NCBI GenBank assembly: GCA_016209635.1
Contig: JACQWC010000130.1
Span: 1-60,030 of the forward strand
Source: Candidatus Rokuibacteriota bacterium
GTDB lineage: Bacteria > Methylomirabilota > Methylomirabilia > Rokubacteriales > CSP1-6
Length of the DNA stretch: 60,030 nucleotides
Direction of reading: 5' to 3'
The notes beneath the pieces were generated by a model. That model was given only the letters and a program-made list of their open reading frames with translations, searched no databases and was not told the DNA's origin. The position numbers and the translations under genes are program-made. Positions 13,288 to 31,426 of the stretch are shown piece after piece (position 1 is the stretch's first letter; the number at the start of each line of letters is the position of its first letter).

Positions 13288-13382
13288 GGCGCCTAGTCTA
13301 GCCTCCCGCCGTTTATAATGCCGGGGCCGGCAGGGGCCTTCGCCGCCGATCGGCTCGCGGCCGGGAGATCGAGGAGGGGCCC

Positions 13383-14552
13383 ATGAACGTCGCTCCACGC
13401 ATGGCGCGGCTCGGCACCGAGTCCGCGTTCGAGGTGCTCGCGCGGGCCAGGGCGCTCGAGCGCCAGGGTCGGTGCATCATCCATCTCGAGATCGGCGAGC
13501 CCGACTTCGACACACCCCTGCACATCCGCGAGGCGGCGAAGCAGGCGCTCGACGCCGGCGCGACCCACTACGGTCCCTCGGCGGGCCTGCCCGAGCTCCG
13601 CGAGGCGATCGCCAAGCACATCGGCGAGACGCGCTCCATCGCGGTGTCCCCGGAGGAGGTCGTCGTCACGCCCGGGGCGAAGCCCATCATGTTCTTCACG
13701 ATCCTGGCGCTGGCCGGTGCCGGGGACGAGGTGATCTACCCGAACCCCGGGTTCCCGATCTATGAGTCGGTGATCAACTTCGCCGGCGGCGTTCCGGTGC
13801 CGATCCCGCTGCTCGAGGAGAGCGGGTTCGGCTTCGATCTCGACCGCTTCGAGCGCAGCGTCTCGCCCCGGACCCGGCTGATCATCATCAACTCGCCCCA
13901 GAATCCGACGGGGGGCGTGCTCGAGCGCGGCCAGCTCGAGCGCATCGCCGCGCTCGCCGCGTCCCACGGGATCCCGGTGCTGGCGGACGAGATTTATCGC
14001 CAGTTCCTCTACGAGGGGGAGTTCGTCTCGATCGTCGGGCTCCCCGGCATGCGCGAGCTCACGATCATCCTGGACGGCTTCTCGAAGTCCTATGCGATGA
14101 CCGGCTGGCGCCTCGGCTACGGCGTGATGCCGGTGGGCCTGGCCGAGCACGTGACGAGGCTCATGGTGAACTCCGCGTCGTGCACGGCCTCGTTCGTCCA
14201 GCTCGCGGGCATCGCGGCGCTCCAGGGGGACCAGACCCCGGTCGCCCGCATGGTCGGCGAGTTCAAGCGCCGCCGCGATCTGGTCGTGGACGGCCTCAAC
14301 CGGCTACCGGGCGTGTCGTGCAGGTCCCCGCGCGGCGCCTTCTACGTCTTCCCCAACATCACGCGGACGAAGCGGCCCTCGAGCGAGGTCGCGGAGCGGC
14401 TGCTGACCGAGGCCGGCGTGGCGGTGCTCTCGGGGACCGCCTTCGGCGCTCACGGCGAGGGGTACCTGCGCCTCTCGTACGCGAACTCGGAAGTGAACCT
14501 CAGGGAGGCGCTCGACCGGATGCGGCCCGTCTTCGAGAGCCTCCAGCGGTAG
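13383..14552 (+). CDS. PLP-dependent aminotransferase class I/II (aspartate aminotransferase-like)
   Basis: IGEPDF, NSPQNPTG, DEIY, GFSKSYAMTGWRLGY; upstream TATAAT and GAGGAGG. Confidence 0.93.
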   Translation: MNVAPRMARLGTESAFEVLARARALERQGRCIIHLEIGEPDFDTPLHIREAAKQALDAGATHYGPSAGLPELREAIAKHIGETRSIAVSPEEVVVTPGAKPIMFFTILALAGAGDEVIYPNPGFPIYESVINFAGGVPVPIPLLEESGFGFDLDRFERSVSPRTRLIIINSPQNPTGGVLERGQLERIAALAASHGIPVLADEIYRQFLYEGEFVSIVGLPGMRELTIILDGFSKSYAMTGWRLGYGVMPVGLAEHVTRLMVNSASCTASFVQLAGIAALQGDQTPVARMVGEFKRRRDLVVDGLNRLPGVSCRSPRGAFYVFPNITRTKRPSSEVAERLLTEAGVAVLSGTAFGAHGEGYLRLSYANSEVNLREALDRMRPVFESLQR

Positions 14553-17981: not shown

Positions 17982-19838
17982 CTACGCGACGATGGCCGGG
18001 TCGACGCGCATCACCACGTAGCCGCCCACGGCGCCGGCGCCGAACCCCGGCGCGAAGACGCGCAACGGCCGGTCGATCACGCCCTCGCGCACGGCATCGT
18101 GGATGGCGAGCGGGATGCTGGCCGACGAGGTGTTTCCCACCCGCTCGATGTTGAAGTAGAGCCGCTCGGGGGCGATTCCCGCGGCACGCGCCAGGTTGAC
18201 GACCATCGTCTTGTTGGCCTGGTGCGGCACGATCAGGTCGATCGCGTCCAGCAGCGAGCCCGCGCCCCCGTCGGGGTGGGGCAGCGCGCCGAGCTCGCCG
18301 ATCATCTGGGTCAGGTAACGCTTGACCAGCGCCCGCACCTCGGGACCGTACACGGTGATGTTGTTGTCGAAGTTCGGGTTGGGCCAGACGATCGAGTCGA
18401 CCTCGCTCATCGGGCCGCTCGCGTAGGTCTGGTACACCTCCACGTCCGGCGGCGCTCCCGCGGGCGCCACGCCCACGACGAGCGCCGCGGCCCCGTCGCC
18501 GAAGATCATCCGGGAGGTGCGCACGGTGCCGATCTTGTCCGAGAACTTCTCCCCGCACACGACGAGCACGGGTCGCTCGACCTCCTGGAGGAGTCGCACC
18601 GCCTCGGAGAGGCCGTAGGGTAGCCCGGCGCAGGCGGCCACGATGTCGCACGACGCGTGCGTCTGGAGCATCCCGAGCTGGCCCGAGAGCCAGGTCGCGA
18701 GGGACGGCATCATCTTGACGCTCGTGCACGAGCAGAAGAGGACCGCGCCGATCTCCTCCGGCCGCCGCCCCGACTTGTCCAGCGCCTTCTGGACGGCCAG
18801 GAGCGCGAGGTGGTCGAGGTCGAGCTCGGTGTACACGCGCTGCTCGATGCCCGTCTTCTTCCAAATTTCGTCCGCCGTCATCGGCGACCAGCAGTAGGCC
18901 GCGTTCCGGATGAGGTCGTCGTTGGTGCAGGCGCGCTCGCCCTTGTACACCGCCAGGGCCTCGAGGCGCGGCATGACCCTGAACCGCCGGCGGACCTCGA
19001 CCGGCGGGAAGGGCGCCACGGGCTGGCGCGACGCGCGCGGGGCCGGCGCCTGCGGCCGGACGCGACGGCTGCCCTTCACCCGGCGGATGAACTGGACCAC
19101 GGCGTCGTTCCGCGGATGAAAGACGACCACGAAGTCGTCGGCGTCGAGCTTCCCCACCTCGATGAGCCGCGTCTTCGCGCGGGCCCACCGGTACTGGTTG
19201 TGGAGGACCATCGCCTGCCGCTGCAGGGCCTCGAGCTCGGGCACCGCGTGCGTGCACTCGATGACCTCCTCGTAGCCGTAGCCGGGATAGTCCGGGTCGT
19301 AGGCGAGCAGGTGGTAGGTCAGGGTCTTCGGATTCGACAGGATCTCCGAGACGGTCGGCTTGATGGCCGGAATCTCCGCCCCGGCGCCCTTCTTGTGGCG
19401 GAAGACGTCGAGGAGGATCCGGAAGACCTTGTCCTCCACGCCCTCGTCCCAGGTCGGGGCGAGCTCCCGGTATCCCGCCTCGATCGCCGAGGTGAGCTCG
19501 GTCCCGTCCCACGGCTTGAAGACGGGCAGGAACACGTCGTCGCGGTTGCGCGGGACGTCCCGCCACCGGGTGGGACGCTTCTCGTACATGGTCATCGCGT
19601 AGCGGTTGACCCAGAAGAGGTTGAGCGCCAGGTCGCGGAGCAGCTCGTACCGCCCGGCATAGCCGCGCGACTCCACCCGGGCGACGATGTCCGTCTCGGT
19701 GGGGGCCTTTTCCTCGAAGTCCCGCTTGATCACCGCCGCGAACTGGTCGAGCGTCTCGAAGACCGAGAAGTCCAGCTCGGGGAAGAAGTTGAAGGGGAAG
19801 ACGATGCGGCCGAAGCGGTTGATCACGAACGGCTTCAT
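17982..19838 (-). CDS. 3-oxoacyl-ACP synthase III (FabH-like) with ~290-aa N-terminal extension
   Basis: AACAG (Cys), FGDGA, PHQAN (His), GNTSSASIP (Asn), GFGAG. Confidence 0.85.
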   Translation of the reverse strand: MKPFVINRFGRIVFPFNFFPELDFSVFETLDQFAAVIKRDFEEKAPTETDIVARVESRGYAGRYELLRDLALNLFWVNRYAMTMYEKRPTRWRDVPRNRDDVFLPVFKPWDGTELTSAIEAGYRELAPTWDEGVEDKVFRILLDVFRHKKGAGAEIPAIKPTVSEILSNPKTLTYHLLAYDPDYPGYGYEEVIECTHAVPELEALQRQAMVLHNQYRWARAKTRLIEVGKLDADDFVVVFHPRNDAVVQFIRRVKGSRRVRPQAPAPRASRQPVAPFPPVEVRRRFRVMPRLEALAVYKGERACTNDDLIRNAAYCWSPMTADEIWKKTGIEQRVYTELDLDHLALLAVQKALDKSGRRPEEIGAVLFCSCTSVKMMPSLATWLSGQLGMLQTHASCDIVAACAGLPYGLSEAVRLLQEVERPVLVVCGEKFSDKIGTVRTSRMIFGDGAAALVVGVAPAGAPPDVEVYQTYASGPMSEVDSIVWPNPNFDNNITVYGPEVRALVKRYLTQMIGELGALPHPDGGAGSLLDAIDLIVPHQANKTMVVNLARAAGIAPERLYFNIERVGNTSSASIPLAIHDAVREGVIDRPLRVFAPGFGAGAVGGYVVMRVDPAIVA

Positions 19839-19960
19839 CGCCCTGCTCCATCGAGCGCCTGCGAGCGTCGCCGTGCCACGCCTGGACAGTACCCCGCGGG
19901 GGACGGGCCCGCAAGCCCGCCTCCGCCGCGGCCCGTCTCGGACGCACGTATAATGGGCGC

Positions 19961-20614
19961 ATGGCGATCCTCGGCGAACGGGACAGGCAGGCGGTCCGGG
20001 AGGAGCTCGCGCGGCTCGGCGGGCCGGTCAAGCTCGTCGTCTTCTCCCAGCAGCTCGCGGCGGGCGACCTCTGCCTCCAGAACGAAGCGCTGGTGCGCGA
20101 GGTGGCGGGCCTCACCGACAAGGCGACGCTCGAGGTCCTGAACCTCGCCATCGATCGCGAGCGCGCGCAGGCGTACGGCGTCGACCAGGTACCCGCCACC
20201 GTGGTCGAAGGAGCGCGCGACTATGGTCTCAGGTTCTACGGGATCCCCTCGGGCTACGAGTTCGCGAACCTGATCGATTCGATGATCGTCGCGTCGACGG
20301 GCGAGCCGGAGCTGACCGCCGAGACCAAGGAGGCGCTCGGGGCGCTCGCGACGCCCATCGACATCAAAGTCTTCTCGACGCCCACGTGACCGTACTGCCC
20401 CCAGGCGGTCCGCCTGGCGCAGCACATGGCCGTCGCGTCCGAGCAGGTCCGCGCCACCGCGATCGCGGCGACGGAGTTTCCGGAGCTCGCTCGCGCCTAC
20501 CGGGTGATGGCGGTGCCGAAGGTGGTCATCAACGACCGCGTGCAGTTCGAGGGAGCGCTGCCCGAGCGGGAGTTCCTCCAGGCGGTGCTGCGCGCGGCGA
20601 ACGGCGCCGTCTGA
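19961..20614 (+). CDS. Thioredoxin-fold protein disulfide oxidoreductase (PDO/AhpF-NTD-like), selenoprotein with UPYC
   Basis: ORFs 19961-20389 and 20426-20614 are in the same frame; reading through TGA 20387-20389 gives FSTPT-U-PYCPQAVRLA. Also RFYGIPSGYEF and VPKVVIN. Confidence 0.88.
20401..20417 (+). promoter_or_regulatory. Bacterial SECIS hairpin
   Basis: CCAGGCG-GTC-CGCCTGG perfect 7-bp stem starting 11 nt after the in-frame UGA. Confidence 0.75.
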
Positions 20615-20640
20615 CGACCCGCTCCCCGCGGCCCGCGGCC

Positions 20641-21015
20641 GTGGCCACCCGCGCTGACCTCCTGTTCGTGTACGGCACGCTGATGCGCGGGTACGCGCTC
20701 AATCGCCTCCTCGTCGGCCGCGCGACCTTCCTCGGCGAAGCGCGCGCCGGGGGCCGGCTGCTCGACCTCGGGCGGTATCCCGGCGTGGTCCCGGGCGCGG
20801 GCACGGTGCACGGCGAGGTCTATCGGCTCGCCGATCCCGAACTTCTCCGGACGATCGACCGCGAGGAGGGGTACAATTTTGAGCGCCGTCGCACCACCGT
20901 GATGCTCGCCGAGGGCCGTCGCGCGCGGGCGTGGATCTACCGATACCGCGGGTCATGGGAGCGCGCGATCCCCATTCCCGACGGCGACTATCGCCGGGCG
21001 CGCCCGATCGACTGA
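20641..21015 (+). CDS. Gamma-glutamylcyclotransferase (AIG2-like) family protein
   Basis: LFVYGTLMRG, YPG, VHGEVY, DREEG, AWIY. Confidence 0.85.
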   Translation: MATRADLLFVYGTLMRGYALNRLLVGRATFLGEARAGGRLLDLGRYPGVVPGAGTVHGEVYRLADPELLRTIDREEGYNFERRRTTVMLAEGRRARAWIYRYRGSWERAIPIPDGDYRRARPID

Positions 21016-21034: not shown

Positions 21035-22417
21035 ATGGCGCTGACAGCCGCCGAGCTGGTGAAGGCCGACCAGGACCACCTGATTCATCCGCTGCACCAT
21101 CCCGTCGACAACGCGGAGCCCATCATCTACGTGCGCGGGCGCGGGGCGACGCTCACCGACATCGGGGGCCGCGAGTACATCGACGGGCTCGCCGGCTTGT
21201 GGAACGTGAACGTGGGGCACGGGCGCGCCGAGCTGGCCGAGGCCGCGGCGCAGCAGATGCGGGAGCTGGCGTACTTCTCGGGCTACGTCGGATCCTCCAA
21301 TGTCCCGGCGATCCGGCTGGCCGAGCGCCTCCTCGAGCTGGCCTACGACAACATGCAGGCCGTGTTCTTCACCTCGGGCGGCGCCGAGTCGAACGAGTCC
21401 GCGTTCAAGACGGCCCGCTTCTACTGGAAGGCCGTGGGCAGGCCGGGCAAGGTCAAGGTCATTGCGCGGCAGAACGCCTACCACGGCGTCACCCTCCAGG
21501 CGATGAGCGCCACCGGCATGGCGGCGTACTGGAAGATGTTCGAGCCCCGGGTGCCCGGGTTCGTCCACATCCCGACCTGCTATCCCTACCGGTACCAGGG
21601 GGCCCGGCCGGGCGAGACCGTCGGTCAGGCCGCGGCGCGCGAGCTGGAAGAGGCGATCCTCCGCGAGGGGCCCGACACGGTGGCGGCGTTCATCGCCGAG
21701 CCCATCCACGGCGGGGGCGGCGTGCTCTATCCAACGGACGACTACTTCTCGCTCGTGCGGGACGCGTGCACGCGTCACGACGTGCTGTTCATCGCCGACG
21801 AGGTGATCACCGGCTTCTGCCGCACCGGTCGGTGGTTCGCCCTCTCGCACTGGGACGTGAAGCCGGACATCCTCTCGTTCGCGAAGGGCGTCACGTCGGG
21901 CTACCTGCCGCTCGGCGGCATCATGGTGAGCAAGGCGATCAAGGACGCGATGGACGCGGTGAAGCCCGAGGACCGCTGGATGCACGCGTACACCTACTCG
22001 GGTCACCCGACCTGCTGCGCCGTGGCGCTGAAGAATCTCGAGATCATGGAGCGCGAGCGGCTCTGGGAGAACGCGGCCCGGATGGGCACGCGCCTCCACG
22101 AGGGGCTCCGCACCGCGTTCGGCGACCATCCGAACGCGGGCGAGGTCCGGGGCGGCAAGGGGCTGCTGGCGGCGCTCGAGCTGGTCGCGGACCGTGGAAC
22201 GAAGGCGAACTTCCCCGCCGGGGAGAAGGTGGCGCCGCGGATGCAAGCGGAGATGTTCAAGCGCGGGCTGGTGACGCGCGTCCGGCCCACCTCGGGGTCC
22301 CACCCGGCGAACGGCGACCAGGTCTTCTTCGCCCCGCCGCTCGTCGTCACCGAGGCCGAGGTGGATCGCATCGTGAGCATCACGCGCGACGCGGTCAAGG
22401 CCGTCCTCGGCGCGTAA
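21035..22417 (+). CDS. Class III (omega-amino acid/polyamine) aminotransferase
   Basis: GLWNVNVGHGR, SGGAESNE, YHGVT, FIADEVITGF, FAKGVTSGYLPLG. Confidence 0.92.
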   Translation: MALTAAELVKADQDHLIHPLHHPVDNAEPIIYVRGRGATLTDIGGREYIDGLAGLWNVNVGHGRAELAEAAAQQMRELAYFSGYVGSSNVPAIRLAERLLELAYDNMQAVFFTSGGAESNESAFKTARFYWKAVGRPGKVKVIARQNAYHGVTLQAMSATGMAAYWKMFEPRVPGFVHIPTCYPYRYQGARPGETVGQAAARELEEAILREGPDTVAAFIAEPIHGGGGVLYPTDDYFSLVRDACTRHDVLFIADEVITGFCRTGRWFALSHWDVKPDILSFAKGVTSGYLPLGGIMVSKAIKDAMDAVKPEDRWMHAYTYSGHPTCCAVALKNLEIMERERLWENAARMGTRLHEGLRTAFGDHPNAGEVRGGKGLLAALELVADRGTKANFPAGEKVAPRMQAEMFKRGLVTRVRPTSGSHPANGDQVFFAPPLVVTEAEVDRIVSITRDAVKAVLGA

Positions 22418-31153: not shown

Positions 31154-31426
31154 CTCGTCCTCGGCACCTTCATGGACGGCTTCTCGATGATGGTGACGAC
31201 GATCCCGGTGATCCTGCCCATCCTCAAGACCCAGAACGTCGATCTCGTGTGGTTCGGGGTGATCGCCACGATCCTGACTGAGACGGCGCTGATCTCGCCG
31301 CCCGAAGGCCTGAACGTCTACGTGAGCGTGATACCATTCTTCGTCATGATGATCGTCGCCAGCGTCATCCTGATGGTCTTCCCGCAGATCGCGCTCTTGC
31401 TCCCCACCACGATGAAGGGGAACTGA
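31154..31426 (+). pseudogene. TRAP transporter large permease (DctM) C-terminal remnant
   Basis: LGTFMD, DLVWFGV, ISPPEGLNVYV, FPQIALLLP. Confidence 0.8.

Follow-up and report, generated by a model that had tools for sequence, protein, structure and literature searches.

Protein disulfide oxidoreductases (PDOs) of hyperthermophiles consist of two thioredoxin folds of ~110 residues each with two CxxC centres, CQYC and CPYC, and are reduced by thioredoxin reductase. Two contiguous thioredoxin folds also make up the N-terminal domain of AhpF, where the redox-active dithiol resides on the second fold only; AhpF itself has ~520 residues, this domain being fused to an FAD/NADH thioredoxin-reductase-like part. 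Selenocysteine (Sec) forms, the AhpF-N-terminal-like/PDO selenoproteins, were first listed by Zhang et al. in 2006 (PMC1794560) from Carboxydothermus hydrogenoformans and Symbiobacterium thermophilum, and a passage of a 2026 review (PMC13188914) lists the family with TIGR02187, a UxxC motif, one Sec and ABB15282.1 as an example. Here, we describe a gene of this family in a 60,030-nucleotide (nt) stretch of DNA from Candidatus Rokuibacteriota bacterium (contig JACQWC010000130.1 of assembly GCA_016209635.1). This whole 60 kb stretch, with 71% G+C, is referred to as the window. An earlier sequence-only reading had proposed a hidden selenoprotein at this place, with a UGA recoded in a thioredoxin-type active site. 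We found that it is a real selenoprotein gene, that Sec use was already known for both its family and its bacterial group, and that the loss of the N-terminal CxxC, a nearly invariant hairpin and the leaderless start are particular to its clade. The features of the gene are as follows.

19961..20614, + strand: selenoprotein coding sequence, from the ATG at 19961 to the stop TGA at 20612-20614; 217 residues when TGA is translated as U, with Sec at residue 143.
20387..20389, + strand: selenocysteine codon UGA, residue 143; TGA in 61 of the 63 loci covering this column, the protein being more conserved after it than before it.
20360..20590, + strand: C-terminal thioredoxin-fold domain with the redox centre U143-P-Y-C146; Pfam Thioredoxin_3 (1.8e-23, residues 134-210), aligned to the CPYC of the Pyrococcus PDOs.
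20063..20074, + strand: degenerate N-terminal active-site motif GDLC, residues 35-38, in which Cys38 alone is left; the Cys-type relatives have CQYC.
20395..20422, + strand: bacterial Sec insertion sequence (SECIS) element inside the coding sequence, with an apical hairpin at 20401-20417 and a weaker lower helix of 3 bp (20395-20397 with 20420-20422).
19949..19954, + strand: -10 promoter box TATAAT, 6 nt before the ATG and with no Shine-Dalgarno sequence between them (TATAAT-GGGCGC-ATG).

The in-frame TGA occupies the first Cys position of the CPYC motif (...KVFSTPT-U-PYCPQAVR... in the read-through translation), exactly where the sequence-only reading had placed it, and the frame stays open to the TGA at 20612-20614, so that the 217-residue two-domain protein also stands. 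The earlier reading had stated that PDO/AhpF-N-like selenoproteins exist. This family is indeed a listed one, and the window protein passes the same curated model as its members, NCBIfam TIGR02187.2 (PDO_seleno_TRX; protein disulfide oxidoreductase, equivalog), with 248.6 bits against a cut-off of 185, residues 6-211 being aligned to profile positions 2-208 of 209. AhpF-type models remained far under their cut-offs (TIGR03140, 64 bits against 502.9; TIGR03143, 98 against 687.65). Like the PDO_seleno_TRX selenoproteins, the protein has Sec at a UxxC motif, a single Sec per chain and Cys homologues with CPYC; unlike them, it comes from MAGs (metagenome-assembled genomes) labelled Rokubacteria/Methylomirabilota. 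In its clade, the N-terminal CxxC has been lost.

Among solved structures, the top matches were the PDOs of Pyrococcus horikoshii (1J08, E = 7e-45) and P. furiosus (1A8L, 3e-44), both over residues 1-212, followed by those of Aquifex (2AYT/2YWM) and Aeropyrum (2HLS), the hyperthermophile group extending to E = 1e-22. AhpF N-terminal domains (1ZYN, 1HYU, 4O5Q) came after them, with E values of 6e-10 to 4e-8 over residues 12-206. The end-to-end alignment to 1J08 and 1A8L predicts two thioredoxin-like folds within ~220 residues, and in it U143 falls on the first Cys of the C-terminal CPYC of the Pyrococcus structures, as it does on that of the Cys-type relatives; the relatives show UPYC or UPHC at this C/U-P-Y/H-C redox motif. 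The window protein differs from the hyperthermophile PDOs in having Sec instead of Cys and a single U/C centre instead of two CxxC centres, and it lacks two short insertions of the Pyrococcus PDOs. In place of the second, N-terminal CxxC centre of the classical P. furiosus type it has GDLC, in agreement with the loss claimed earlier. The arrangement of a redox centre on the second fold only matches that of the AhpF N-terminal domain. Unlike AhpF, however, the gene is stand-alone, and its 217 residues include no FAD/NAD(P)H thioredoxin-reductase-like part. The gene product is a cytoplasmic two-thioredoxin-fold protein disulfide oxidoreductase, and its sole intact redox centre is U143-P-Y-C146.

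We then compared the gene with its orthologues. A species scan with one genome per species gave 64 loci, nearly all of them in MAGs labelled Rokubacteria/Rokuibacteriota or Methylomirabilota. The active-site column is covered by 63 loci, of which 61 have TGA there; the two most distant of these 63, L057 and L058 (52% and 47% identity), have TGT and a CPYC motif. TGA is kept in L061, a Chloroflexi-labelled locus with 41% identity. Read-through frames are 213-226 residues long in the window gene and in all 62 loci that have a start (L001-L062). Mean identity to the window protein was 80% after the UGA vs 68% before it (n = 59 relatives). In a codon alignment of 60 sequences (the window and 59 loci; L057, L058 and L061 were omitted because of their distance, and L063 and L064 because they are not complete), the entropy of the part after the UGA was 0.37, 0.32 and 0.97 bit at codon positions 1, 2 and 3, respectively, that is, the variation is codon-periodic. 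Since the part downstream of the UGA is more conserved and its variation codon-periodic, a pseudogene, a sequencing error and a split gene are excluded. Six of the loci (L016, L018, L050, L054, L055 and L064), labelled Acidoferrum, Binatia, Verrucomicrobiia, Elusimicrobia, archaeon Nitrosocosmicus and Hyphomicrobiales, carry the gene at 63-78% identity and mostly with the same downstream neighbours; they are probably mis-binned Rokubacteria-type contigs.

These data bear directly on the explanation that the UGA arose through faulty sequencing or assembly, or that this codon is reassigned throughout the genome. Such an explanation, which has nothing more than the bare presence of an in-frame stop in its favour, is hardly conceivable: the same TGA recurs in 61 independently assembled species genomes, and TGA ends 23 of the 34 complete genes of the window, as well as closing the PDO gene itself. 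It also terminates 49 of the 63 orthologous PDO genes. We rejected both error and reassignment on these two grounds, the alignment of homologues at the Sec column (TGA in 61 of 63, TGT in two) being a check that the earlier reading had proposed. As TGA is the usual stop here, the recoding is local. We also looked for other selenoprotein genes in the window; the sole other in-frame TGA with a coding signal on both sides, at 31424, is a plain gene junction.

A different possibility is that the UGA is a true stop, so that a split or decaying gene would yield a 142-residue N-terminal protein with or without a 62-residue product from the ATG at 20426. The Table 11 open reading frames (ORFs) are indeed 19961-20389 and 20426-20614, and standard annotation does split the gene, as had been anticipated: among the best 120 protein relatives in the database, 45 are deposited as proteins of 140-150 residues ending in ...TP[TG], i.e. 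cut at the Sec column. Some termination at a Sec codon is moreover expected under selenium scarcity. However, the 142-residue product would have no redox centre at all, because its own CxxC is already lost, and the product from Met156 would begin too late to include either the UPYC motif or the fold's first strand. No other stretch of the gene is as conserved as the 36 nt that separate the two ORFs, and these are in frame; the protein-level constraint in the 59 relatives is stronger downstream than upstream in the same frame, and the junction is spanned by one Pfam and one NCBIfam model. We consider a true stop highly improbable.

The remaining 75 of the 120 database relatives are full length; by pattern, 68 have C at the site and one (P0003) has L, while six were unmatched. 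The N-terminal CxxC is retained in none of the 45 shortened, TGA-type relatives vs 73 of the 75 full-length ones, and no TGA-type relative displayed in the read-through alignment has a CxxC at this site. P0002 and P0003, both full length and 73% identical to the window protein, have C and L, respectively, at the Sec column; they may be either true variants or read-through translations.

Next, we analyzed the RNA behind the UGA. The apical hairpin, CCAGGCG-GUC-CGCCUGG, has seven perfect pairs, begins 11 nt after the UGA and carries GGUC at its apex, as the earlier reading had described; the first G of GGUC pairs with the C that follows this tetranucleotide and closes the stem, leaving the loop GUC. 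The fdhF gene of E. coli K-12, used as a positive control, has an identical layout (UGA at codon 140, 11-nt offset, 17-nt hairpin, GGUC apex), which bears out the spacing given for it. In the fdhF element, a U bulges from the stem and the loop has 4 nt, whereas the stem in the window is perfect over its 7 bp.

The bacterial SECIS (bSECIS) model, as given in the legend to Fig. 2 of PMC13188914, requires 3-9 nt in the loop and 4-16 bp in the stem, a G at one of the first two loop positions, a distance of 16-37 nt from the UGA to the loop and an energy of at most -7.5 kcal/mol. The window hairpin passes this model (7 bp, loop GUC, 18 nt, -11.2 kcal/mol). So do 61 of the 62 TGA sequences when scored as the bare 17-mer, that is, the window and 60 of the 61 TGA-type loci, and the SECIS is thus well placed by published standards, as had been claimed. 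L061 fails on energy alone (-6.2 kcal/mol) and retains the helix via one compensatory change, from G-C to U-G. In the two TGT relatives, the equivalent 17 nt reach -1.6 and -4.0 kcal/mol only. The commonest form of the hairpin, CCGGGC-CGUGC-GCCUGG (6 bp, loop CGUGC), is present in 56 of the 62 TGA sequences, and the form with a seventh G-C pair and a GUN loop in five, the window among them; L061 differs from both.

Among all 212 six-codon segments of the gene, third-position entropy is at its minimum in codons 147-152, which coincide exactly with the hairpin (0.12 vs a gene mean of 0.93 bit). Four of these codons are fixed: CCC for Pro147 (60/60), CGG for Arg148 (59/59), CGC for Arg151 (60/60) and CTG for Leu152 (60/60). 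Pro144 and Ala153, just outside the stem, are encoded by four codons each. The RNAalifold consensus contains the same apical helix as the single-sequence reading. We take the hairpin to be real because the synonymous sites are constrained and the TGA is conserved, and not because of the fold itself. An outer helix joining 20390-20393 with 20426-20429 was tried and rejected, as 60.8% of its cells pair, and in the lower helix, 20 of 58 distinct rows do not form the pair 12-33. As the outer helix pairs poorly, the claim is limited to the apical hairpin and the weak 3-bp lower helix.

An in-frame UGA that is aligned with the Cys of the homologues and has a conserved open frame behind it is what marks a selenoprotein gene, and this is what we observed; both properties argue for the recoding of the UGA within a UxxC thioredoxin motif. 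The recoding could in principle deliver Cys. A tRNA(Sec)-like cysteine tRNA (tRNA-ReC/SelC*) brought by SelB to the same hairpin would produce an ordinary CPYC protein, and this would fit every sequence feature equally well. Passages of PMC13582414, citing Vargas-Rodriguez et al. 2018, state that such tRNAs decode UGA as Cys given a downstream SECIS and that they occur in several soil and sediment phyla. In the genomes named there, however, the ReC/SelC* tRNAs came alongside canonical SelC, and Methylomirabilota is not among the genomes that these passages name. A lineage that needs only Cys would also be expected to drift to TGY, and TGA has been kept in 61 of 63 loci. Thus, we regard Cys insertion as very unlikely.

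Sec decoding in this lineage is further indicated by a second TGA-type gene, which lies next door in a number of relatives and constitutes independent evidence.

L002:6744-7244: Sec-peroxiredoxin; same place in L005, L008, L012, L014, L017, L022, L024, L031, L036, L037, L039, L040, L043 and L048.

In these 15 loci, the extra gene stands between the PDO gene and the gene downstream of it (a GGACT-type gene, see below) and encodes an AhpC/TSA (BCP/PrxQ-like) peroxiredoxin, with PF00578 matches of E = 1.6e-29 to 5e-36. The PF00578 domain spans the TGA codon, and TGA is found at the peroxidatic Cys (...AFTGG-U-) in 16 of the 16 loci that hold the site. A hairpin follows here as well, its GU-initiated loop beginning 17 nt after the UGA. 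The N-terminus is hydrophobic and resembles a signal peptide. Peroxiredoxins with Sec are an already known family (TxxU Prx). The gene is absent from the window, and fragments of it in L063, L004 and L027 suggest that it has been lost repeatedly.

Sec use in this bacterial group is also on record. A passage of PMC13188914, citing Deng et al. 2026, mentions that 63 selenoprotein genes are predicted in a Methylomirabilota MAG, and a passage of PMC13582414 describes Sec-type hydrogenases in Methylomirabilota. Our literature search on selenocysteine in Rokubacteria or Methylomirabilis gave incidental papers only, and the BSepDB text has no mention of AhpF, TIGR02187 or Rokubacteria/Methylomirabilota.

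The start of the gene was analyzed in a similar manner. The window has a single TATAAT followed by ATG after 5-7 nt, where chance would give 0.01, and the hexamer itself occurs twice in the 60 kb; the other copy, at 13314-13319, lies 63 nt upstream of an aminotransferase gene starting at 13383. In 48 of the 63 orthologous genes, the ATG follows a TATAAT-like hexamer (one mismatch allowed) after 5-8 nt, and in 41 of them after precisely 6 nt. The arrangement pointed out earlier, as gTATAAT-N6-ATG and with no Shine-Dalgarno sequence, is thus kept in most orthologues. In some of the 15 remaining orthologues, the box is at 9 nt or has two mismatches. Five loci (L043, L045, L046, L048 and L049) have TATAAT ~30 nt upstream and then GGAGG; the box shifts along with the leader, and therefore behaves as a real -10 element would. 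A scan of 19700-20800 for two-hexamer sigma-70 promoters and intrinsic terminators found none, and no -35 partner of the -10 box could be recognised. As the TATAAT stands 6 nt before the ATG with no Shine-Dalgarno sequence, a leaderless mRNA is implied; the position of the box supports such an mRNA and a transcription start at the beginning of the gene. No paper on leaderless mRNAs in Rokubacteria came up in a literature search.

The above results led us to a model that we hold to be very probable, in which a leaderless mRNA undergoes SelB/SECIS-directed Sec insertion at UGA 143 to give a single-centre (U143/C146) thiol-disulfide oxidoreductase with a redox-dead first fold as scaffold. Transcription would begin at or beside the A of the ATG, from the TATAAT 6 nt upstream. 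When the ribosome reaches UGA 143, the hairpin 11 nt downstream, with G-U in its apical loop, would hold SelB-GTP with Sec-tRNA(Sec), and Sec would be inserted in place of termination. The end of the gene, 74 codons later, is again a UGA, which has no such hairpin behind it and would be read as a stop. The protein would then cycle between a selenolate/thiol and a selenenylsulfide, and it may relay electrons that it receives from a flavoprotein of the thioredoxin reductase type to substrates that are disulfides or peroxidases, by analogy with the PDO/thioredoxin reductase pair and with the AhpF N-terminal domain and AhpC. The first fold, having lost its CxxC, would serve only as a scaffold, as it does in AhpF.

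Several observations weigh against this model. Covariation in the hairpin is near nil (the RNAalifold covariation term is -0.06 kcal/mol), so that the support consists of invariance, and a change on both sides of an apical-stem pair is seen in one pair and in one sequence only. The fold of the 71-nt region is within chance (z = -0.59; an equal or better fold in 52 of 200 shuffles). A simple hairpin satisfying the SECIS criteria follows 161 of the 1115 TGA trinucleotides of the window, and one at least as stable follows 49 of the 1115. Being within chance in DNA of 71% G+C, the hairpin alone was rejected as evidence. The simple uninterrupted-hairpin measure of energy used here is conservative, giving -2.0 for the validated fdhF element, and one of the 16 hairpins of the neighbouring peroxiredoxin genes reaches -7.5. 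No Rfam family matches the window at gathering thresholds; at E values up to 10, the region 20300-20520 gave merely five chance-level matches to unrelated families, and no Rfam model matches either of the two hairpin forms (7 bp/GUC and 6 bp/CGUGC).

The decoding machinery and the redox partners belong on the same side of the balance. SelA, SelB and SelD were matched by none of the 40 scanned reading frames of the window, ARAGORN detected no tRNA genes in either the window or L001-L060, and tblastn with E. coli SelA/SelB/SelD against the 701,951 bases of the window and loci gave no match. As the scanned DNA is a small part of each genome, missing sel genes are not evidence of absence. The sequence fits Sec insertion and SECIS-dependent Cys insertion alike. 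In the window, no thioredoxin reductase or peroxiredoxin gene adjoins the PDO gene and there is no ahpC beside it, so that the redox partners named in the model are those suggested by analogy. We do not claim a partnership of the PDO with the Sec-peroxiredoxin of the relatives, because the latter looks exported and the PDO does not.

The genes surrounding the PDO gene in the window are listed below.

20641..21015, + strand: GGACT/AIG2 gamma-glutamyl cyclotransferase-like gene (PF06094, 7.7e-24), beginning 26 nt after the PDO stop.
21035..22417, + strand: class-III (omega) aminotransferase, matched by several aminotransferase models (best 2.9e-137).
17982..19838, - strand: divergent upstream gene for a 618-residue protein whose C-terminal 330 residues are FabH-like (beta-ketoacyl-ACP synthase III).

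The GGACT/AIG2-like gene lies directly downstream in 56 of the 64 loci and is probably in the same transcript as the PDO gene. The class-III aminotransferase is the second downstream neighbour in 58 of the 64. The order PDO, GGACT-like gene and class-III aminotransferase, which in the window are separated by 26 and 19 nt, suggests an operon. The divergent FabH-like gene is kept upstream in 18 of the 64 loci, and the first ~290 residues of its product have no Pfam or NCBIfam match.

These neighbours also allow a more speculative proposal, which we consider unlikely. The Sec-PDO gene may head a conserved leaderless operon comprising Sec-PDO, in some species the exported Sec-peroxiredoxin, the GGACT-type cyclotransferase and the omega-aminotransferase, and the hairpin could be recognised through its sequence, act as a selenium gauge, or both. 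The 17-nt hairpin is identical in 56 of the 62 TGA sequences even at synonymous sites, so that its recognition may depend on sequence in addition to shape. If the gauge existed, scarce Sec-tRNA would cause termination at UGA 143 and lower the expression of the downstream genes, and selenium supply would be linked to a so far undescribed gamma-glutamyl/amine pathway.

Knowledge of selenocysteine decoding and of the PDO family itself is unchanged by this gene. What it adds concerns the lineage and its annotation. The 62-sequence set is a clean, order-wide case of a bacterial SECIS under selection at synonymous sites, and paired with the second selenoprotein gene of the same geometry, it could help to train SECIS models for high-G+C uncultured phyla. 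At present, 45 of the 120 closest database records are mis-annotated as fragments of 140-150 residues in which the redox centre is hidden; with the gene model corrected, these bacteria of soil and groundwater therefore gain a full-length selenoenzyme.

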